Shown here: one piece after another, positions 24,793 to 33,257 of the stretch
Position numbering within the stretch: position 1 is the stretch's first letter
How the letters are laid out: every line of letters starts with the position of its first letter
NCBI GenBank assembly: GCA_964645905.1
Contig: CAZYBR010000001.1
Location: forward strand, 1-58,430
Direction of reading: 5' to 3'
DNA from: an uncultured archaeon
GTDB taxonomy: Archaea; Aenigmatarchaeota; Aenigmatarchaeia; CG10238-14; SCSR01
DNA length: 58,430 nt
Notes under the pieces: generated by a model
The model's input: the letters and a program-made list of their open reading frames with translations, nothing else
The model's database searches: none
Told to the model about the DNA's origin: nothing
Program-made: the position numbers and the translations under genes

Positions 24793-24836
24793 ACCAACCT
24801 TAAGTTAACAGTGTCCCCCGCCAGGTTCTGGTAAGT
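24793..24836. repeat. Intergenic C-run element (copy B)
   Basis: ACCAACCTTAAGTTAACAGTGTCCCCCGCCAGGTTCTGGTAAGT. Its left arm is the reverse complement of the right arm of copy A. The core CCCCCGCCAGG is shared. Confidence 0.7.
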
Positions 24837-24936
24837 CTTTGACGGTTAGTTAGTGCACAAGTATATTTGTTAAGACTCGATTGGTAGATTTCTTTAAAAG
24901 ATAAGAATTTCAATGTGTTAAAATTCAATTGGTTAT
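24824..24936. repeat. Left arm of the ~113-bp inverted repeat bracketing the 24.9-33.1 kb island
   Basis: GGTTCTGGTAAGT (24824-24836), then 78 nt, then GTGTTAAAATTCAATTGGTTAT (24915-24936), directly followed by the ATG at 24937. It matches the right arm read on the minus strand. Confidence 0.8.
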
Positions 24937-25647
24937 ATGGAAACCTTAAGCCCCTGGATTAATGGACTGATAGACAGTCTTACTGCTACAAGACTTATTT
25001 TAAACACAAATATAGAAAGCAGGAATAGGTTAGCTTTAATTCTATTGGATAGCACATTAGAAGTTTCTTTTAAAAACTACTTAAGCTATGTAAAGGACAT
25101 TAAAAAATTACCAGATAATGTGCTTAAAAATAGAGAAGAACTGCACAAAATTGTTAAGCGCAATACAACCTTTGGAAAAGACATCTGGGACAGTATAGAT
25201 TATTTTTATGATAAAAGAAATGATTTGTATCATGAAGATGTTGGGAAGACTTTGCCAGATCTAAGTATATTAGATTTTTTCAACCTTGTGATATTTATCA
25301 TTGATCAATTATTCTCTATCAATTCACAAGCTTTGATTAAGAACCCTAATGAAGTTTTAGTTAAAATATCTACAAAGAAGATTGGTATAAACAAAACCAA
25401 ATCCAAAATAGAAGCTATAATTGTAGCTGTGGGGTATTCTAACAAAATTGCCTCGAGTTCGGAAATAAAAGACATCCTTAATAGACTAGGTTACAAACAG
25501 ATGCTTACGCCCAGTCAGATTAACACTTTAATGAAGAATAAATATTATAAACATTACTTTTATTACGATAGAAAGGAGAGTACATGGACTTTAAGTGACG
25601 TGGGACAAGATGAGTATTATAGAATGTTAGCTGAATATGGTGAATGA
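24937..25647 (+). CDS. HEPN-like (Rx4H) protein with a C-terminal Mrr_N-like winged-helix module
   Basis: All-helical N-terminal ~130 aa with YDKRNDLYHED (R94-N-x3-H99, the classic RNxxxH HEPN motif). C-terminus ...SSSEIKDILNRLGY...STWTLSDVGQDEY resembles a wH reader domain. Confidence 0.5.
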   Translation: METLSPWINGLIDSLTATRLILNTNIESRNRLALILLDSTLEVSFKNYLSYVKDIKKLPDNVLKNREELHKIVKRNTTFGKDIWDSIDYFYDKRNDLYHEDVGKTLPDLSILDFFNLVIFIIDQLFSINSQALIKNPNEVLVKISTKKIGINKTKSKIEAIIVAVGYSNKIASSSEIKDILNRLGYKQMLTPSQINTLMKNKYYKHYFYYDRKESTWTLSDVGQDEYYRMLAEYGE

Positions 25648-26241
25648 ATGACAGATGAAATAAAAAAGAAAGAAATGAACGTGATTGCCAAAATAGATAC
25701 TCCAAACTTTAAGCTTGAAATTAATACAGTAGTAGACAGAGCAGACTTAGATGATACTCTTTCTTTTATACTATCCACCTTTGAAAAGAATTACAAAAAA
25801 ATAGATAAGATGTACGGATCAACAATAATCCAACCGACTTTACAAAAAGAAACTAAGGTAGAATATCCGTTTAAAGAGTTAAGCGAACCTGTAATAAACA
25901 TCGCTAGAAGAATGGGGGTGAACCCAGAAAAACTGATTGGTAATAATTTATTTGGGTTCAAGAGTGATAAACCGCAAATTTTTGATCCTTCAAGATTCAA
26001 GAGTGCCAATACAGCTGTGCGTGCATTAGTATATCTTTTTGAGATAGGATTAGGAAAGCAATCAGTCCAAAAAGAAGAGTTAGGAGAAGCTTATGAAATT
26101 AGTAAAATAAAGGGTAGAAAAGTTTCTCAATTGCTGCAAGATCTTAGAAAAATAGGTCAATTGGAAAAAAATGAAATAACACTTACAGCAAAAGGAACAA
26201 GTGAAGCTGAAAATGAGTTAAAAGCTTTGTTATCACTTTAG
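25648..26241 (+). CDS. Hypothetical partner protein of the HEPN-like gene (197 aa), possible C-terminal wHTH
   Basis: ATG immediately follows the upstream stop (TGAATG). C-terminus ...KVSQLLQDLRKIGQLEKNEITLTAKG is wHTH-like. No other motif seen. Confidence 0.45.
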   Translation: MTDEIKKKEMNVIAKIDTPNFKLEINTVVDRADLDDTLSFILSTFEKNYKKIDKMYGSTIIQPTLQKETKVEYPFKELSEPVINIARRMGVNPEKLIGNNLFGFKSDKPQIFDPSRFKSANTAVRALVYLFEIGLGKQSVQKEELGEAYEISKIKGRKVSQLLQDLRKIGQLEKNEITLTAKGTSEAENELKALLSL

Positions 26242-27387
26242 ATGTCTTTCTATAATAAATTTATATTTTGAGTGGAATAATTTGTAAAATTCAACCCACT
26301 TCTCAGCCTTCTCTCTAAACTCAAAATCAGTTCTCATACCGAGTTCTCTTTTCGGGTCCTGAAACTCATTTCCTTGCTCGTCAAGTATTTTTACCTTGTA
26401 GATTACGTCTTTCTCAGGTTCTGGAGCAGTATGACCATTGCCCTGATTACCATCAAGTTTAGATTCCATAGCCATTTTTACCAGTTCCATCCATCTGTTA
26501 CCACCGTTCAAATGAATGTTAATTCTGGAAGCCTCTGCAGGAGTCATGCCATTAAGAGACAGATGAGGTCTGATGAAGTTGTAGTAGGTCATAAATCCAT
26601 TCAGTATATCGGACGTGGATTCGGGTTGGTCAAAACCTCTTGTAACTTTTATTCTATCTCTAACAGTCCCATTAAACCTTTCAACAGGATTATTGTTGAT
26701 ACTTCCTCGCAGTCCAGTAGACCATACATGCTTAGTTTGTGGGTGCCTCCAGAATACCTTTCTAATAGCCTTATCGTAAGCTTGCAAACCGTCAGTAATC
26801 ACAACTTTAGGTTTGTTAATCAGTTTAGACTTACTCTCTTTGAATATCGCAACTGCATCAGCTTGATAACGAGCCTTGGATAATTTACAGGCAGTAATGA
26901 ACTTAGTTTCCTTGTCGATGACATTCCATAACCAGTACCATTTGCCTTTCACAGTAACCATCATTTCATCGGCATGAAGAACACCAGAACTTTCTCCTTT
27001 CAGCTTATCAGTAAATTCCTTGAAGATCTTCGAATATTTCCTTATCCAAAATAAGATGGTTACATGGCTTACCTTTACTCCGTATATCTGCCTTAGATGA
27101 TCTTTGACTCCTCTCAATGACATATTCTTGAAGTAGAGGTCTAAGGCAACTGTTATGATTTCTCCTTTATGCTTCATCTTAGGAAAAGTAGTATTGTCTG
27201 AAAATATTTTCTTGCAGGACTTGCATTTGTAAATCTGAATATTACCGATCTTGTTCTTTCTGTTTCCATGTCTGATTACTTCACTCGCTTTACAGTACCT
27301 GCATTTTGTATCTTTACCCATAACGTCACCCATAACTCTATCAATAACTATACACTTACATATATTTAAAGTTATCGGTAACGCCAC
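26233..27387 (-). CDS. DDE transposase (IS6/IS1-like, integrase-core fold) with an N-terminal zinc finger and a ~75-aa C-terminal extension
   Basis: CRYC...CKSC zinc finger. DDE context HADEMMV..., VITDGLQAY..., NNNPVERFNGTVRDRIK. YNFIRPHLSLNGMTPAEA is typical of the integrase core. The true start may be an internal Met (MGKDTKCRYC). Confidence 0.7.
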   Translation of the reverse strand: MALPITLNICKCIVIDRVMGDVMGKDTKCRYCKASEVIRHGNRKNKIGNIQIYKCKSCKKIFSDNTTFPKMKHKGEIITVALDLYFKNMSLRGVKDHLRQIYGVKVSHVTILFWIRKYSKIFKEFTDKLKGESSGVLHADEMMVTVKGKWYWLWNVIDKETKFITACKLSKARYQADAVAIFKESKSKLINKPKVVITDGLQAYDKAIRKVFWRHPQTKHVWSTGLRGSINNNPVERFNGTVRDRIKVTRGFDQPESTSDILNGFMTYYNFIRPHLSLNGMTPAEASRINIHLNGGNRWMELVKMAMESKLDGNQGNGHTAPEPEKDVIYKVKILDEQGNEFQDPKRELGMRTDFEFREKAEKWVEFYKLFHSKYKFIIERHLK

Positions 27388-27432
27388 CGATAGATTTATA
27401 AGTACTCGATGATATTCTTATTTAGTGATATT

Positions 27433-27651
27433 ATGGAACTCGATAAAGAGGCACAAATTATACTAAAGTTAATTGAAGACTCTAAAGAACCTTTGGAAAC
27501 TAGGGAGGTAGAAGAGAAATTTAAAAATCTCTCAAGATCTAAGATTTTGTACAGATTAAATCAACTGAGAGCTGAGGGTATGATTAAAGGTAAATCTATT
27601 GGTGCAGGTAAAGGTAACTGGGTTTGGTGGAGTAAAGAATCGTTTAGGTAA
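27433..27651 (+). CDS. Small winged-helix protein (72 aa), first gene of the type III R-M operon
   Basis: MELDKEAQIILKLIEDSKEPLETREVEEKFKNLSRSKILYRLNQLRAEGMIKGK is wHTH-like. Its stop overlaps the next ATG (TAATG). The track start at 27409 is also possible. Confidence 0.5.
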   Translation: MELDKEAQIILKLIEDSKEPLETREVEEKFKNLSRSKILYRLNQLRAEGMIKGKSIGAGKGNWVWWSKESFR

Positions 27652-27887
27652 TGATTATGGCAGGACAGTATGAAACACTAAGTTGTCCATTTTGTGATAA
27701 AGGCAAGATAACTTGCTTGTATTTCCCTAGTGTTATTAGCGTTAAAAGAGAGAAGTCCGCTACCTTTGGTTCTAAAACATCAAGAAGTAAATCTTCTGAT
27801 ACATGGCTTGTCCAATCTGGGTGCAGCTTTTGTGGTAAATCACAAGAAGAAGTGGAGAAGGAACTAAAAAAGCGAGATATCATTTAA
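27651..27887 (+). CDS. Small zinc-ribbon protein (78 aa)
   Basis: CPFC...(41 aa)...CSFC four-Cys arrangement. Translationally coupled to the upstream wHTH gene. Ends 17 nt before mod. Confidence 0.5.
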   Translation: MIMAGQYETLSCPFCDKGKITCLYFPSVISVKREKSATFGSKTSRSKSSDTWLVQSGCSFCGKSQEEVEKELKKRDII

Positions 27888-27904
27888 CAAAAGTAGGCTA
27901 AATT

Positions 27905-29842
27905 ATGGATGACTTAAAACTGTTATGGAAAAATAAGAAAGAAGAAGTAGATAAGATTGTATTACCTTTTCAGAAAATAGAGACAGTAACTATATCTCGA
28001 ACGGGTAAAGACACACTGAATGTATTAAGAAATACCGATAATAGTTCTTGGAAAAACAAACTTATTTGGGGTGATAATAAGTATATTCTGGCTTCTTTGT
28101 TAAAAGACCCTTCTATTGCCGGAAATATAAAACTAATTTATATAGATCCGCCTTTCTTCACAGGTACGAACATGAATATTCCTATTAAAATAGGTGATAC
28201 TAGTGAAGTCACAAAAGAACCTTCTGCAATTGAAGAAGTTGCTTATAGAAATATGTGGAAAGGAAACAGTAGAGAAGAGCAAGCATCATCTTTTTTGCAA
28301 TACATGTATGAACGAATAAAATTAATGCACGATTTGCTTTCGGAAGATGGTTCGATGTATGTAAGATTCGATTATCATTATTCTCATTATATTAAAATAA
28401 TACTGGATGAAATTTTCGATTATGATAATTTTAGAAATGAAATAATTGTAAATAGGACCAGAAAAAACGTTATGGAATCGCAAACACAAAGAGTTTTTCC
28501 TACTGCTACTGATTCTTTATTTTTTTATTCTAAAAATAATTCAGCATTTTTAAATAAAGTTGTCAAAAAACTTGAGCAAAAACGAGAGGGTTTTTGGAGA
28601 CACATGGATGATTCGGCGGGACAAGGAAGTCCAAAAATATTTTTTGGTAAAAAACTATCACCACCAGTCGGCAAACACTTCAAATATTCTCAAGAAAAAA
28701 TTGACGAAATGATTAAAAATGGAAAAATCAGATTACATTGCAAAAACTGCGGCTATGAACATACAGAAGGCAATTGGAATAAATGCCCCTCATGTAAAAA
28801 GGATAACCCAAGACCAGAATATTGGGTATCTGAACGAGAACACGCTTTACTAGATACAAATTGGACAGATATACCTGGTTATTCATTTAGTACAGGATAT
28901 CCAACCGAAAATTCCGAACATTTATTGGAGAGAGTTATACTCGCTTCTTCTAATCCAAGTGATTTAGTTGCTGACTTTTTTGCAGGATCGGGGACTACAA
29001 ACATAGTTGCCGAAAAGTTGAATCGTAGATGGATAGCTTGCGATATAGGAAGATTTTCAATTCATACAATAAGAAAACGACTTCTTGAAATACCTACATG
29101 CAAACCATTTGAAGTTCTTAATATGGGTAAATATGAAAGAAAATATTGGGCAACTGAGACATTAGGAGAAGATTATAAAAAATATATTGATTTTATTGTA
29201 CAATTATATAACGCCAAACCATTGAATAATTTTGAATATATTCATGGGAAAAAAGGTAGTAAGGCTGTTCATGTCGGATTAGTAGATTCACCTGTTTCAA
29301 AAAAAGAAATATTTGACGCACTCGCTGAATGTAAAAAAGTGGGCTTCGACAGTCTTGATGTGCTTGGCTGGGAATGGGAAATGGGTTTGAATGATTCAAT
29401 AATAAAAGATGCTAAAGATTTATTTACTGTGAATCTAGCTCTTTGGGTTATACCTAGAGAAGTGATGGATAAAAGGGCTGTGGAAGCGGGTGATATAGAC
29501 TTTTATGAACTTGCTCATTTACAAGTGGATGTTTCGAAAGAAGCTAGAGGTGTGAAAATTAAACTTGAAGATTTCATAATTCCTAACCCTGAGCTTATTC
29601 CTGCAGAAGTTCAGAAAAAAATTAAAAAATGGAGCGACTATATAGATTATTGGGCAGTTGACTGGGAATTTAAAGATGTTTTTCATAACGAATGGCAGAC
29701 ATATAGAACCAAAGACTCCTCTAATTTAAAACTTGAGACACCTTCTCATGATTATCGAAAAGGTGAGTACCAAATACTGATTAAAGTTATTGATATTTTC
29801 GGCAATGATACAAGTACGATAAGACGAATTGTGATAAAATGA
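27905..29842 (+). CDS. mod: Type III R-M DNA methyltransferase (Mod), beta-class N6-adenine/N4-cytosine
   Basis: Motif IV IYIDPPF precedes motif I DFFAGSGTT (beta order). The variable region between them has a CKNC...CPSC zinc ribbon. ATGA overlap with res. Confidence 0.85.
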   Translation: MDDLKLLWKNKKEEVDKIVLPFQKIETVTISRTGKDTLNVLRNTDNSSWKNKLIWGDNKYILASLLKDPSIAGNIKLIYIDPPFFTGTNMNIPIKIGDTSEVTKEPSAIEEVAYRNMWKGNSREEQASSFLQYMYERIKLMHDLLSEDGSMYVRFDYHYSHYIKIILDEIFDYDNFRNEIIVNRTRKNVMESQTQRVFPTATDSLFFYSKNNSAFLNKVVKKLEQKREGFWRHMDDSAGQGSPKIFFGKKLSPPVGKHFKYSQEKIDEMIKNGKIRLHCKNCGYEHTEGNWNKCPSCKKDNPRPEYWVSEREHALLDTNWTDIPGYSFSTGYPTENSEHLLERVILASSNPSDLVADFFAGSGTTNIVAEKLNRRWIACDIGRFSIHTIRKRLLEIPTCKPFEVLNMGKYERKYWATETLGEDYKKYIDFIVQLYNAKPLNNFEYIHGKKGSKAVHVGLVDSPVSKKEIFDALAECKKVGFDSLDVLGWEWEMGLNDSIIKDAKDLFTVNLALWVIPREVMDKRAVEAGDIDFYELAHLQVDVSKEARGVKIKLEDFIIPNPELIPAEVQKKIKKWSDYIDYWAVDWEFKDVFHNEWQTYRTKDSSNLKLETPSHDYRKGEYQILIKVIDIFGNDTSTIRRIVIK

Positions 29843-32376
29843 TGGGACCATTCAATAAACCTGATAATAGAATAGAGACATTCTGCCCATTGGTGTTAAA
29901 GATACGAGAAGAAGTCGACAAGTGGAGAGACTCTGGTTATGATGGTGTGTCAGAAACTACAAAAATTCTTCTTAATTTTTGGTTTAACGAAGGTCACATG
30001 TCTAATGGGAAACTATTCAAATATTATTTCTGCCAAAGAGAGGCAATCGAAACATTGGTATTTTTATTTGAAGTAAAACAAATTAGAACTCTCAGAGATC
30101 TTGTAATCAACTATGATATTAGCAAAAAAATTGCTTATAATCCTCATGATGATTTATTCACGAAATTTTGTTTTAAAATGGCTACAGCTTCTGGTAAAAC
30201 AAAAGTTATGGCTTTAGCAATAGTGTGGTCTTTTTTAAACAATGTCATAGAACAAAATAAAGATTTTTCCAAAAGTTTTATTATTATTGCGCCTAATATA
30301 GCTGTTTATGAAAGATTGAGAACAGATTTTTCAGGCGGTGAAATATTCAGAAGTGACCCCCTAATACCAGAAGAGTTTCAAAATTATTGGGATGTCGATG
30401 TTGTTTTAGAAGATGAATTAACAAGTCGGTCGGCAAAAGGTAGAATATATCTTACAAATGTCCAAAAACTTTATGAACGCTCAAATGATACTGAGAGCCT
30501 GAACCCCGTAGAAGCAATAGTTGGAACTAAACCGAGAGAAAAGAACGCATATGAAACTATTTTTGATGATTTAATGAAACTTGATGATATTTCTATAATT
30601 AACGATGAGGCTCACCATGTTTGGGATCCTGAATCGAAATGGAGTGAATTTATATCAAAACTTTTCAAACGATTTAAAAAAGATGGAAAACTATTTGCTT
30701 TCCAGCTTGATTTTTCCGCTACGCCAAAGAAGCAGAATGGCGGACTTTTTGAATGGGTTATAGCAGATTATCCTCTTGCTGATGCTATAAGAAATGGAAT
30801 TGTAAAAAGACCTATTATTGGAGAAGTTGAAAATGCAAAAGAGACTCCATCGGAAAGAGCCGATATTGTTTACAGAGATTACATAGAAGCTGGAATAAGG
30901 AGGTGGAGGAGATACAGAGAAGTCATGATAAACGTAAAGAAGAATCCTATAATATTTTTCATGGCTACTAAAACGAAAGAAGCTGAAGATATAAGAGATT
31001 TTCTAGAAACAAAATCCGATTTCAAAGGTAAGGTTCTTTTGATTCATACGAATTTGAAAGGGGATATAAGTGAAAAGGAATGGACTAAACTTAAAGAAGA
31101 ATCAAGAAATCTAGATTCTGATAGCGACAAATATCGAGCTGTCGTAAGTGTTCTTATGCTTAGAGAAGGATGGGATGTTAAAAATGTAACTATTATAGTA
31201 GGTCTCAGACCGTATACTTCCAAAGCCAACATACTACCAGAACAAACGTTGGGAAGAGGATTGAGATTAATGTTTGGTCCTAAATCTGGGTTTGAAGAAA
31301 CTGTAGATGTTTTCGGTTCTAGTGCATTTATTGACTTTATCGATTCTGAGTTAAAGAAGGAAGGCGTTAGAATTCAGAGACTTAAAGAAAGGGAAATGCC
31401 AGATGTTACTAATATTTTCGTTGACCCAAGGAAAATGAAATTCAATGTAGAAATTCCCAATATAACTCCTAAGTATACAAGAATAAACAGATCATTTGAT
31501 GACATTAAGGTTGAGAATCTTCCCAAAGGTCCATTTGAATTAGATTTGAAATCGTACTCGATAAAGAAAATAGCTAAAGGAAGAGATGCCTTAACGAATA
31601 AAGAAGTTTGGAAAGATCAATGGAACCAAATTATACCTGAAAACTTTGAGTCTATAATAGGTTATTATTCGAATCGTATACTTAGAGAATGTAAAATACC
31701 ATCGCGAAACTATGAATTTATCCCGAAATTAAAGGAGTACATTTTAAAACGTTTATTTGGCAGAGAACTTACCGAAAAAGAAATCAGCAACAAACTTTTC
31801 TTAAGGCAGTTCATAGAATCAAGCATATACTCCTATTTAATGACGCTATTCCCGAGAGTTATAAACACTTTGACCATAACACCGCAAGAAGTTAAACTGA
31901 ATCAAGAACCTAAAATGGCGTCTCATGTAGAGCCATTTCTGACTAGGAAGGAAGTCTACAATTCAAAGAAATGCATATTGAATTTAGTACCTATTGATAA
32001 TGATTTGGAAGGTAGGTTCTGTATTTTTTTGGATTCGGCTAAAGATGTTAAAACATTTATTAAGAACGATGTGAATCTGAACTTCTATATAGAATACGTC
32101 AATGAGAAAAAAGGAATTTCGTATTATGTACCAGATTTTGTTATAGAAACTAACAATGAATTCTTTATTGTAGAAACTAAGGGTGTTGAAACGGAGGATG
32201 TGGAATTCAAGGATAAGAGAGCTACTGAATGGTGTGAAGATGCTTCAAAATTAACAGGTAAAAAATGGGAGTATATCAAAGTAAAACAAATAATTTTTGA
32301 CGAAAACCAGAACATAAAAACATTCAGTAAATTAGTGGAGTTGATAAAGGCATATCAACTAGCGACGAATTATTAA
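29839..32376 (+). CDS. res: Type III restriction enzyme Res subunit (SF2 helicase + PD-(D/E)xK nuclease)
   Basis: MATASGKTKV (Walker A), NDEAHH (DEAH box), LMLREGWDV, and a C-terminal nuclease motif YVPDFVIE...FFIVETKG. Confidence 0.85.
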   Translation: MMGPFNKPDNRIETFCPLVLKIREEVDKWRDSGYDGVSETTKILLNFWFNEGHMSNGKLFKYYFCQREAIETLVFLFEVKQIRTLRDLVINYDISKKIAYNPHDDLFTKFCFKMATASGKTKVMALAIVWSFLNNVIEQNKDFSKSFIIIAPNIAVYERLRTDFSGGEIFRSDPLIPEEFQNYWDVDVVLEDELTSRSAKGRIYLTNVQKLYERSNDTESLNPVEAIVGTKPREKNAYETIFDDLMKLDDISIINDEAHHVWDPESKWSEFISKLFKRFKKDGKLFAFQLDFSATPKKQNGGLFEWVIADYPLADAIRNGIVKRPIIGEVENAKETPSERADIVYRDYIEAGIRRWRRYREVMINVKKNPIIFFMATKTKEAEDIRDFLETKSDFKGKVLLIHTNLKGDISEKEWTKLKEESRNLDSDSDKYRAVVSVLMLREGWDVKNVTIIVGLRPYTSKANILPEQTLGRGLRLMFGPKSGFEETVDVFGSSAFIDFIDSELKKEGVRIQRLKEREMPDVTNIFVDPRKMKFNVEIPNITPKYTRINRSFDDIKVENLPKGPFELDLKSYSIKKIAKGRDALTNKEVWKDQWNQIIPENFESIIGYYSNRILRECKIPSRNYEFIPKLKEYILKRLFGRELTEKEISNKLFLRQFIESSIYSYLMTLFPRVINTLTITPQEVKLNQEPKMASHVEPFLTRKEVYNSKKCILNLVPIDNDLEGRFCIFLDSAKDVKTFIKNDVNLNFYIEYVNEKKGISYYVPDFVIETNNEFFIVETKGVETEDVEFKDKRATEWCEDASKLTGKKWEYIKVKQIIFDENQNIKTFSKLVELIKAYQLATNY

Positions 32377-32407
32377 TCGTTTTAAATAATATGTGAACTA
32401 ATGTCAA

Positions 32408-33064
32408 CTAATTCTCTTGTAGAATAGAAGGATACGATCTTTTAATTTCTGTAATTAATTTATTAATACCAGTCTCTATATCATCGGTGCGAATTTTAAT
32501 GCCTTGTTTTTGTTCTGCCAGACCAGTTATGTTAGTTTCGTCGAAAATAAGTGGAACTACTATTTTATCTTTAGCCATAGCATATCCAGTCTCTTGATTT
32601 GCCCAAGCCGATAAATTAAAATTATCTGTAATTAACGGGAGGAATAAATCACAAGAGTCCAAGTGTTTTTCTATTTCGTCTCTCCATTCAGATGATATCT
32701 CGACTTCTTCATGAGCTAAAAAAGATTTTATGTTGAATTTTCCTAGTTCTTCTTTAACTTTACCTGCAATATTTTTATCTTTAGTGTTATAACTCAAGAA
32801 TGCTTCTCTTGACATCTCGTCTAGTGTTATGATAGTCTCAGAGCCGTGTCTTTCAAGCTTTTCCACACGTCCAATTATAGGAGGGTTGAGTTTTTGAAGT
32901 GGTATAGTCATCATGGGTCTATCAAAGGAACCTACTTCTCCTGTTGATGAGTTTTCTATAGCAGGTGTTCTAATTGAGGTTTGACTGTAGAAATACGCCT
33001 CAGTAATCTTGATCATGTCACCTCTTCTTGCATTAAATGTGCCACTAATAGCTACAGTTATCAT
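32408..33064 (-). CDS. TIR-like domain protein with an uncharacterised ~90-aa N-terminal domain
   Basis: C-terminal half AFLSYNTKDKNIAGKVKEEL...FLAHEEV...SCDLFLPLITDNFNLSAWANQETGYA follows the TIR pattern (FxSYxxxD ... S.W...E). The track start at 33070 is TTG; I use the ATG at 33064. Confidence 0.55.
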   Translation of the reverse strand: MITVAISGTFNARRGDMIKITEAYFYSQTSIRTPAIENSSTGEVGSFDRPMMTIPLQKLNPPIIGRVEKLERHGSETIITLDEMSREAFLSYNTKDKNIAGKVKEELGKFNIKSFLAHEEVEISSEWRDEIEKHLDSCDLFLPLITDNFNLSAWANQETGYAMAKDKIVVPLIFDETNITGLAEQKQGIKIRTDDIETGINKLITEIKRSYPSILQEN

Positions 33065-33174
33065 AACCAATTGAAATTTAACACTAGATGTATTTATTTA
33101 ATTCATAACTAAGAAACAACCGAAACTTAACACAAAATTTCTTTATAAGCACCAATCAACAACTTACCAGAACC
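33063..33174. repeat. Right arm of the ~113-bp inverted repeat bracketing the island
   Basis: Read on the minus strand: GGTTCTGGTAAGT (rc of 33162-33174), then 77 nt, then GTGTTAAATTTCAATTGGTTAT (rc of 33063-33084). This is 21/22 identical to 24915-24936, and its last bases overlap the ATG at 33064. Confidence 0.8.
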
Positions 33175-33185
33175 CCCCCCGCCAG
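33162..33185. repeat. Intergenic C-run element (copy C)
   Basis: ACTTACCAGAACCCCCCCCGCCAG. A C8 run plus GCCAG, as in copies A and B. On the minus strand it reads CTGGCGGGGGGGG. Confidence 0.6.
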
Positions 33186-33257
33186 AAGCTTTATATACTT
33201 TTATGTTATAGTTAATACTAAATTTAGTATTCGTTGTAACATAAACAAGGTGTAAAA

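Follow-up and report, generated by a model that had tools for sequence, protein, structure and literature searches.

TIR NAD+ glycohydrolases (NADases) are a central immune effector common to bacteria, plants and animals, and to our knowledge the way in which each of them senses infection is usually not known. A single small gene of an uncultured DPANN-type archaeon raises the question of whether one protein can carry both the sensor and the effector. The gene lies on the minus strand, at positions 32408-33064, of a 58,430-nt stretch of DNA (GCA_964645905.1, contig CAZYBR010000001.1, forward strand), which we call the window and to which coordinates refer. It encodes a TIR domain preceded by an N-terminal beta domain (the N-domain). 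We consider it rather probable, though by no means assured, that the product is a self-contained, SpbK-like, single-protein sensor-effector NADase. Archaeal TIR immunity is, as far as we know, almost unexplored experimentally, especially in DPANN archaea with genomes under 1 Mb, in which every accessory gene is costly.

The TIR domain and its N-terminal partner

The gene and its parts are as follows.

32408-33064, minus strand: N-domain/TIR gene, complete, 218 residues (open reading frame and translation; full-length homologues at 84, 68, 65 and 43% identity)
32804-33064, minus strand: N-terminal beta domain, residues 1-87 (AlphaFold2 model, 18-sequence alignment, no family match)
32456-32800, minus strand: TIR_2 domain, residues 89-203 (Pfam PF13676; same coordinates in a genome-wide TIR_2 search; Foldseek)
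32591-32593, minus strand: codon of Glu158, predicted catalytic, in the S-x-W-x-N-Q-E motif (CTC on the plus strand, GAG on the minus strand)

The open reading frame is intact, with 218 codons running from an ATG at 33064 to a TAA at 32410-32408. An in-frame TTG is also present two codons upstream; the ATG was preferred because the closest homologues begin at the same residues, sharing the initial M-I-T/S-V (MIT/MIS). The gene is monocistronic and converges on a type III res gene, whose stop lies at 32376, leaving a spacer of 31 bp. An earlier sequence-only reading of the window had placed the gene at exactly these coordinates and had noted its convergence on res.

That reading had also seen a TIR pattern over residues ~90-200, and a search with the Pfam models located the domain precisely. 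TIR_2 (PF13676) matched residues 89-203 with an E-value of 1.2e-16 and 61.7 bits, well above the gathering score of 28 bits, and the match spans profile positions 2-121 of 122 (120 of the 122). A full-length AlphaFold2 monomer model of the 218-residue protein was built from six homologues. It had a mean predicted local distance difference test score (pLDDT) of 84 and displayed the alternating strand/helix topology of TIR domains over residues 87-210. The best Foldseek matches of this model in the PDB were all TIR domains, with a probability of 1.00: the SPARTA TIR-APAZ proteins (8qlp, 8oz6), the SpbK filament (9phb), whose TIR ranks third, and RPP1, SARM1, L6 and RPS4. DNPH1/Rcl nucleoside 2-deoxyribosyltransferase-like enzymes and LarB/PurE appeared lower in the list.

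The Glu of the W-x3-E segment, on helix alphaC, is the catalytic residue of TIR NADases. The S.W...E segment that the sequence-only reading had pointed to as the carrier of this residue is S152-A-W154-A-N-Q-E158. In a profile search of PDB sequences it aligned to SSWCLDEL of AtTIR (3jrn) and to KNWTEYEL of BtTir (7uxr), so that E158 falls on the Glu of WCLDEL and of WTEYEL. S-x-W-x-N-Q-E is present in every full-length relative that has a TIR domain of the window protein's clade, and the two relatives with a classical TIR domain carry the equivalent W-T-[ED]-Y-E, so that the Glu is kept in all full-length N-domain/TIR proteins. The motifs of the clade are VFLSYxxxD, FLAHE(E/D) and SxWxNQETGY. 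A TIR domain whose catalytic motif is intact makes up the C-terminal half of the protein, and from this conservation we infer a catalytically competent NAD+ glycohydrolase.

The first ~90 residues had matched nothing that the sequence-only reading could recognise, and they stayed unmatched in the libraries searched here. Pfam gave no significant match to the N-domain (best E-value 0.035), NCBIfam and PADLOC gave no match on the N-terminal part, PHROGs gave none, and comparison of the N-domain profile with PDB sequences returned nothing under an E-value of 0.39. An AlphaFold2 monomer model of the N-domain, computed from the 18-sequence alignment A3, was nevertheless confident, with a pLDDT of 92, a predicted template modelling score (pTM) of 0.79 and seven beta strands in an all-beta domain. 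Foldseek found no fold match to this model in the PDB (best E-value 0.51, TM score 0.39) or in BFVD (best E-value 0.087). A proposed likeness to the double-psi barrel of Cdc48-N, or to other cradle-loop barrels, was rejected, as hhalign covered the 16-column GD-box only, at a probability of 8%.

Conserved features of the N-domain are a GD-box-like (R/K)xGDxI(K/R)I, an IENxT/SxG loop and a PPIxG(R/K)V strand; N38 in the loop and V67 in the strand are invariant in the alignment. Its membership of no described family is well supported. Judged from the model, it is a real, autonomous, unannotated folded unit, and possibly a new fold. The net charge of N-domains is mostly -3 to +1, with one member at +4; being neutral to slightly acidic, they would be better suited to binding protein than to binding nucleic acid.

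The N-domain in other proteins and its neighbours

To collect further N-domains, a profile of five of them was searched against 1.84 billion cluster representatives, yielding 17 matches, of which 16 were real clusters. P0013 (4303 residues) was discarded as a cadherin-like repeat adhesin, in which weak NDPVIAKADKVE repeats sum to a spurious score. Together with 90%-identity clusters recovered with full-length profiles, the set comprises 28 distinct sequences; the N-domain is very rare. The N-domain is always N-terminal, save for a few extensions. It is followed by a TIR domain of the window protein's TIR_2 clade in 12 sequences (fragments included), by a classical TIR domain in two, by a PLD-like, MIT_C-like domain of ~140 residues in 13 (one a fragment) and by DUF4062 in one. 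The effectors in turn have other partners: the TIR clade of the window protein is also found with AbiJ_NTD5 or helical domains at the N-terminus, or with helical domains at the C-terminus, and the PLD-like domain follows the N-domain in some proteins and, in others, N-termini resembling a winged helix-turn-helix. In conflict systems, such two-way shuffling of domains commonly marks sensor and effector modules. The N-domain is an exchangeable module across three effector classes, and its shuffling in both directions points to a sensor or adaptor joined to interchangeable effectors, as in such systems. An unannotated compact domain on three effector chassis is a candidate for a sensor whose function is defined and can be tested.

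The ~140-residue C-terminal domain carries the motifs YxKICDPY(I), H-x-R-[YF](-I) and G-H-S-L-K-D, in this order. It gave repeated sub-threshold matches to MIT_C (E-values of 0.003-0.13 in six of eight proteins) and no match in a profile search of the PDB. The domain occurs in P0012, P0014-16, P0018 and P0022-31 (loci L009, L015, L016, L018 and L019), and by these matches and the H-x-R...GHSLKD motif it is probably an uncatalogued PLD-type effector family.

Where taxonomy could be read, the carriers of the N-domain are archaea: a metagenome-assembled genome of an uncultured archaeon, contigs encoding TFIIB, and the DPANN-type genome of the window. Pattern scans of genome contigs for the N-domain found no named carrier genome besides the metagenome-assembled genome already recovered. 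Three metagenome loci picked up by pattern scan (L012-L014) were set aside as chance matches on a eukaryote-like contig.

We then surveyed gene neighbourhoods, as the sequence-only reading had suggested. About ten independent loci could be read, most of them on contigs of 1-5 kb; partners were sought by all-against-all BLAST of neighbouring open reading frames from 12 loci, together with a focused comparison of upstream genes. No partner gene was conserved across the approximately ten N-domain loci. The sole recurring neighbour was an N6/N4-methyltransferase of restriction-modification (R-M) systems, at three of about ten loci. These are the window, L009, where an N-domain/PLD-like gene precedes, by 71 bp and in the same direction, a type III mod gene (E-value 2.7e-96) and a res-like helicase gene, and L007, where an N-domain/TIR gene lies 258 bp downstream of a methyltransferase-Mrr_cat fusion, with recombinases nearby. 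The three methyltransferases are mutually homologous (24-26% identity); orientation and spacing relative to the R-M genes vary among the loci. No methyltransferase adjoins the N-domain gene in L005, L010, L011, L015, L018 or L019. Other neighbours include an MNT-type nucleotidyltransferase (NTP_transf_2), MazG with another TIR-like protein, an integrase/D5-primase element and recombinases.

The most extensive flanks are those of L020/L021, an archaeal contig (TFIIB, HflX) that gives 10 kb on each side of the N-domain gene. Housekeeping genes surround it, with a small ParB_N gene ~1 kb upstream; no R-M or defence gene was found within 10 kb on either side, and no mobile-element genes nearby. 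As this gene stands alone, an N-domain protein can exist without R-M or a fixed partner.

At the window itself, no ThsA, SIR2, STING or CBASS partner was found among the nine proteins neighbouring the TIR gene, in agreement with the sequence-only reading. SIR2_2 had no match anywhere in the 780-kb genome (89.6% complete), and Macro and SLOG, sought among the neighbours, had none there. Features of SPARTA, CBASS and Pycsar (APAZ with pAgo; SAVED, STING or cNMP-binding domains; a cyclase) were likewise absent from the window protein and its neighbours. The sequence-only reading had offered two alternatives, a self-contained sensor-effector or a protein working with the genes next to it. The former is favoured because the N-domain is fused to three effector types, has no conserved neighbour, and occurs in L020/L021 without defence genes; co-operation with neighbours, which gains some weight from the three of the approximately ten loci that abut R-M genes, is the less favoured.

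Two further observations concern these loci. Divergent N-domain/TIR genes in L007 (10001-16100; 42% identity to the window protein) and L020 (10001-14151; 36%), on different archaeal contigs, each have genes for an HflX-type GTPase and TFIIB a few kb away at most, and a related lineage may share this region as a site of insertion. In L019 (8990-10705), a Cys-rich gene of 328 residues precedes the N-domain/PLD-like gene with a gap of 24 bp. This Cys-rich gene is kept in a second contig (345 residues), lies next to the integrase/D5-primase element and was not seen at the other N-domain loci; it is a possible lineage-specific partner.

The transposon setting

The surroundings of the TIR gene in the window contain the following features.

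24824-33174: candidate IS6-type cargo transposon, 8.35 kb (inverted repeats, direct repeat, lone transposase)
24815-24824, plus strand: direct repeat CCCCCGCCAG, left copy, candidate target-site duplication
24824-24936, plus strand: left terminal inverted repeat and leader, both homologous to those of the TIR gene and followed directly by the ATG (24937) of the HEPN-like gene
24937-26241, plus strand: putative HEPN-like/winged-helix gene and partner, a two-gene module at the opposite transposon end (open reading frames, leader homology)
26233-27387, minus strand: IS6-family DDE transposase with N-terminal Zn ribbon (NCBIfam transpos_IS6; Pfam DDE_Tnp_IS240)
27905-32376, plus strand: type III mod (27905-29842) and res (29839-32376) (PADLOC MTase_III, E-value 1.1e-96, and REase_III, E-value 9.5e-31; Pfam N6_N4_Mtase and ResIII)
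33065-33174, minus strand: right terminal inverted repeat, which is the TIR-gene leader, with outer block GGTTCTGGTAAGTTGTTGA, TATA-like CTTATAAA and inner block GTGTTAAATTTCAATTGGTTAT abutting the ATG
33176-33185, plus strand: direct repeat CCCCCGCCAG, right copy, displaced from the repeat tip by one or two extra C of a homopolymer run
33190-33197: TATA box TTTATATA of the 113-residue protein/SelW/Cdc48 operon, 4 bp beyond the right direct repeat

The ~110 nt upstream of the TIR gene and of the HEPN-like gene are inverted copies of one sequence. The status of the TIR gene as end cargo of an IS6-type element, like the module swapping of the N-domain, had escaped the sequence-only reading. The outer block, GGTTCTGGTAAGTYKTTGA, has its sole two exact matches in the genome at 24824-24842 and 33156-33174; one further site resembling it, on contig 30, differs at three positions. 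The inner 22-nt block, GTGTTAAAWTTCAATTGGTTAT, abuts both start codons, is identical at 21 of 22 positions between the two ends and is unique in the genome. The homology of the ends thus reaches the start codons of two unrelated genes. The inverted repeats are GG-tipped, and at their outer tips, in direct orientation, stand the only two exact copies of CCCCCGCCAG that the window contains (0.03 expected). This flanking repeat has a length of 10 nt and accommodates an 8-bp duplication, CCCCGCCA, only on the assumption of a two-C slip. The transposase at 26233-27387 scored 150 bits with transpos_IS6 (cut-off 125 bits); it is the only one between the inverted repeats, and no local inverted repeats were found beside it. 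Hallmarks of the IS6 family are GG-tipped inverted repeats of 15-20 bp and 8-bp duplications (PMC7986276).

The region 24824-33174 is most simply read as one cargo transposon with seven passengers: the HEPN module, a winged helix-turn-helix gene, a Zn-ribbon gene, type III mod and res, and the N-domain/TIR gene. In its sequence arrangement the TIR gene looks like the terminal cargo of an IS6-type transposon whose end-leaders would drive it and the putative HEPN genes inward. The matching ends suggest a shared promoter and 5′ leader, and hence co-regulation of the two putative effectors.

The element resembles IS6-family elements in its transposase with a Zn-ribbon N-terminus, its GG-tipped repeats and its flanking direct repeat (PMC7986276), and it resembles archaeal IS6-family cargo transposons in its R-M and toxin-like passengers and in its site of insertion, 4 bp upstream of the 113-residue protein/SelW/Cdc48 operon's TATA box. 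It differs from the family in carrying seven passengers in 8.35 kb, whereas a single IS6 member in ISfinder has a passenger gene (PMC7986276), in having, in place of a clean duplication of 8 bp, a 10-nt repeat that a slip in poly-C has shifted, and in its ~110 nt of homologous ends.

Comparison with related genomes places the gene in a variable site. A search of the phylum's 370 other species-level genomes found no N-domain, and TIR_2 of any kind occurred in 17 of 371, among them none of the ten congeners. In four congeners (G100, G101, G105 and G103; loci L051-L054) the interval between topA and the 113-residue protein/SelW/Cdc48 operon is a hot spot of variation, from 2.7 to 15 kb long, in which mod and res are missing, as are the TIR gene and the HEPN module. 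The interval holds remnants of IS6 transposases with up to 89% amino acid identity to that of the window, and, as other cargo, an MFS transporter, a 2-hydroxyacid dehydrogenase, an AAA_14 ATPase and many genes without annotation. No empty site was found at the syntenic position of these four. Congener G100 carries the same inverted repeat and leader in front of a different gene, of 252 residues (L051 10682-10782), and G104 the inverted repeat alone; across 371 genomes of the phylum the 22-nt leader motif gave background-level matches with 2-3 mismatches. Just upstream of the TIR gene the G+C content rises from ~33% to ~45%. The context of the N-domain/TIR gene is accessory and mobile.

Activation, alternatives and known systems

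In TIR NADases, the active site forms across a TIR-TIR interface, so activity of the window protein would be expected only on TIR clustering, as in other TIR NADases. In the sequence of events that we propose, the gene would be transcribed from the transposon-end leader, travelling with the type III R-M genes and the putative HEPN module. The N-terminal beta domain, of 85 residues, would be the specificity module and would bind a trigger, for which a viral protein in multimeric form is the likeliest candidate. Binding would concentrate and oligomerise the TIR domains, and the resulting depletion of NAD+ would arrest or kill the infected cell (abortive infection). The model for this scheme is SpbK, whose small N-terminal domain, on binding the phage portal, brings about TIR self-association and NADase activity (PMC12847820). 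Like SpbK of Bacillus subtilis ICEBs1 (PDB 9phb; PMC12847820), the window protein has an N-terminal domain of ~90 residues, a linker and a C-terminal TIR domain, encoded by one gene on a mobile element without a local receptor; clustering of TIRs by binding of a multimeric viral protein, shown for SpbK, is what we propose here. Unlike the window N-domain, which is all-beta, that of SpbK is alpha-helical (PMC12847820); the comparison of the two rests on this contrast, 9phb covering the TIR domain alone. The host here is, moreover, a DPANN-type archaeon.

Several points weigh against the proposal of a self-contained NADase. The full-length model (pTM 0.63) leaves it uncertain how the two domains are placed relative to each other, and the fold negative for the N-domain covers Foldseek searches of the PDB and BFVD, a method that is weak on small beta domains. 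With 28 members on contigs mostly of 1-5 kb, a partner a few kb away could have escaped the survey, and the one recurring neighbour, the R-M methyltransferase, might indicate coupling. Some Glu-bearing TIR proteins make signalling nucleotides for a separate effector and do not deplete NAD+. The host and its viruses are uncultured.

The methyltransferase neighbours would be explained if the protein were a back-up guard linked to R-M, in the manner of PrrC, with the N-domain docking on or monitoring the adjacent N6/N4-methyltransferase complex and the effector firing when a virus inhibits restriction. The adjacency at the window (31 bp), L009 and L007 and the homology of the three methyltransferases speak for such a guard. 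The arrangement of the genes is different at each of the three, however, Mod/Res types do not co-vary with the N-domain, six other loci lack an adjoining methyltransferase and L020/L021 lacks any R-M gene in its flanks. Since R-M genes are the commonest passengers of defence islands and cargo transposons, their co-location would be expected without coupling, and we consider the guard unlikely. An addiction or stabilisation toxin of the transposon, a selfish TIR NADase restrained by the N-domain, or by some antitoxin not yet recognised, and devoid of antiviral sensing, is quite improbable. The gene is indeed terminal cargo of an IS6-type element beside a putative HEPN toxin-like module, and relatives adjoin MNT (NTP_transf_2), MazG and recombinase genes; yet it is monocistronic, no small antitoxin gene is adjacent in the window or conserved in the relatives, and L020/L021 has no mobile-element genes nearby.

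The other two explanations give the TIR domain a different activity. It could be a Thoeris-like signal generator, making a nucleotide of the cyclic ADP-ribose (cADPR) type, or another, for a distant effector, possibly the HEPN/winged-helix module that shares its leader. With N-domains also fused to PLD-like and DUF4062 domains, themselves terminal effectors and not generators of a signal, with a HEPN neighbour at no other N-domain locus, with no SIR2_2 in the genome and with no match to ThsA, Macro, SLOG or STING among the neighbours, we give this little credence. The matches to Thoeris models are weak, PADLOC ThsB1 with an E-value of 8e-7 and NCBIfam ThcB4 with 2.6e-12, the latter at 46 bits, far under its 220-bit cut-off. 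What lends the idea some weight is that the homologous leaders of the HEPN and TIR genes occur nowhere else in the genome, and that SpbK too makes N1-cADPR and has no known local receptor (PMC12847820). A non-immune or non-catalytic TIR, serving as a scaffold or as a housekeeping enzyme that processes nucleotides or nucleosides in a symbiont of reduced metabolism, is suggested by the dependence of DPANN archaea on salvage and by the likeness of the flavodoxin-like TIR fold to DNPH1/Rcl and LarB/PurE among the lower Foldseek matches. The best fold matches are immune TIRs, however, and the catalytic WxxxE is conserved; moreover the gene is not a housekeeping one, because none of the ten congeners has it, 96% of the phylum lacks it and it is carried on a mobile element. 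We regard this last explanation as very unlikely indeed.

Among known systems, the window protein belongs to TIR_2 and, by the tests applied, lies outside Thoeris, SPARTA, CBASS, Pycsar and the SpbK family. With the TIR_2 NADases AbTir, BtTir (7uxr) and SPARTA TIR-APAZ (8qlp/8oz6) it shares a profile score above cut-off, the TIR fold and the W-x3-E Glu; it differs from them in having clade motifs of its own and no APAZ/pAgo, coiled-coil, SAVED, STING or STAND partner domain. It resembles the ThsB proteins of Thoeris (types I-III) in being a short TIR protein that stands alone in a defence setting and in matching ThsB models weakly, and is unlike them in scoring far below the cut-offs (PADLOC ThsB1 partial only), in lacking a nearby ThsA-type gene and in its extra, sensor-like N-domain. 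Of the same TIR clade are AbiJ_NTD5-TIR and other fusions of an N-terminal module to TIR (P0007, P0036, P0043 and P0039), which are 32-48% identical in the TIR domain, share FLAHE(E/D) and WxNQE and carry one accessory module each; those modules are AbiJ_NTD5 or helical, in contrast to the beta domain of the window protein. Single-gene TIR sensor-effectors are already known as a class, and the architecture of an orphan beta domain with TIR is covered by none of the libraries searched. With 218 residues and two domains, the protein should be easy to express, assay and crystallise.

A broader proposal, which we put forward tentatively, joins the module to its setting. The beta domain would be a hitherto unrecognised, exchangeable trigger-sensing module, possibly of a new fold, of single-gene immune effectors in archaea, carried on TIR, PLD-like and DUF4062 effectors, and the N-domain/TIR and putative HEPN genes, on the end-promoters of an IS6 transposon with type III R-M, would form a mobile layered immune cassette. 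Tiny genomes could then gain layered defence in one step, through R-M and two putative suicide effectors with shared end-leaders; genome-reduced DPANN archaea would have at their disposal a complete, mobile 'restriction plus abortive-infection' cassette.

The genome encodes a second TIR_2 protein of the same clade, on contig 8 (L002 1453-2154, plus strand); a third TIR_2 match, on contig 5, proved to be histidyl-tRNA synthetase. The contig 8 paralogue is 36% identical to the window protein over the TIR domain, which in this case is N-terminal and followed by a helical C-terminal region. Its gene lies between a divergent Mrr_cat-like gene of 364 residues and a Cys-rich gene of more than 348 residues, and the locus may be another small defence locus.

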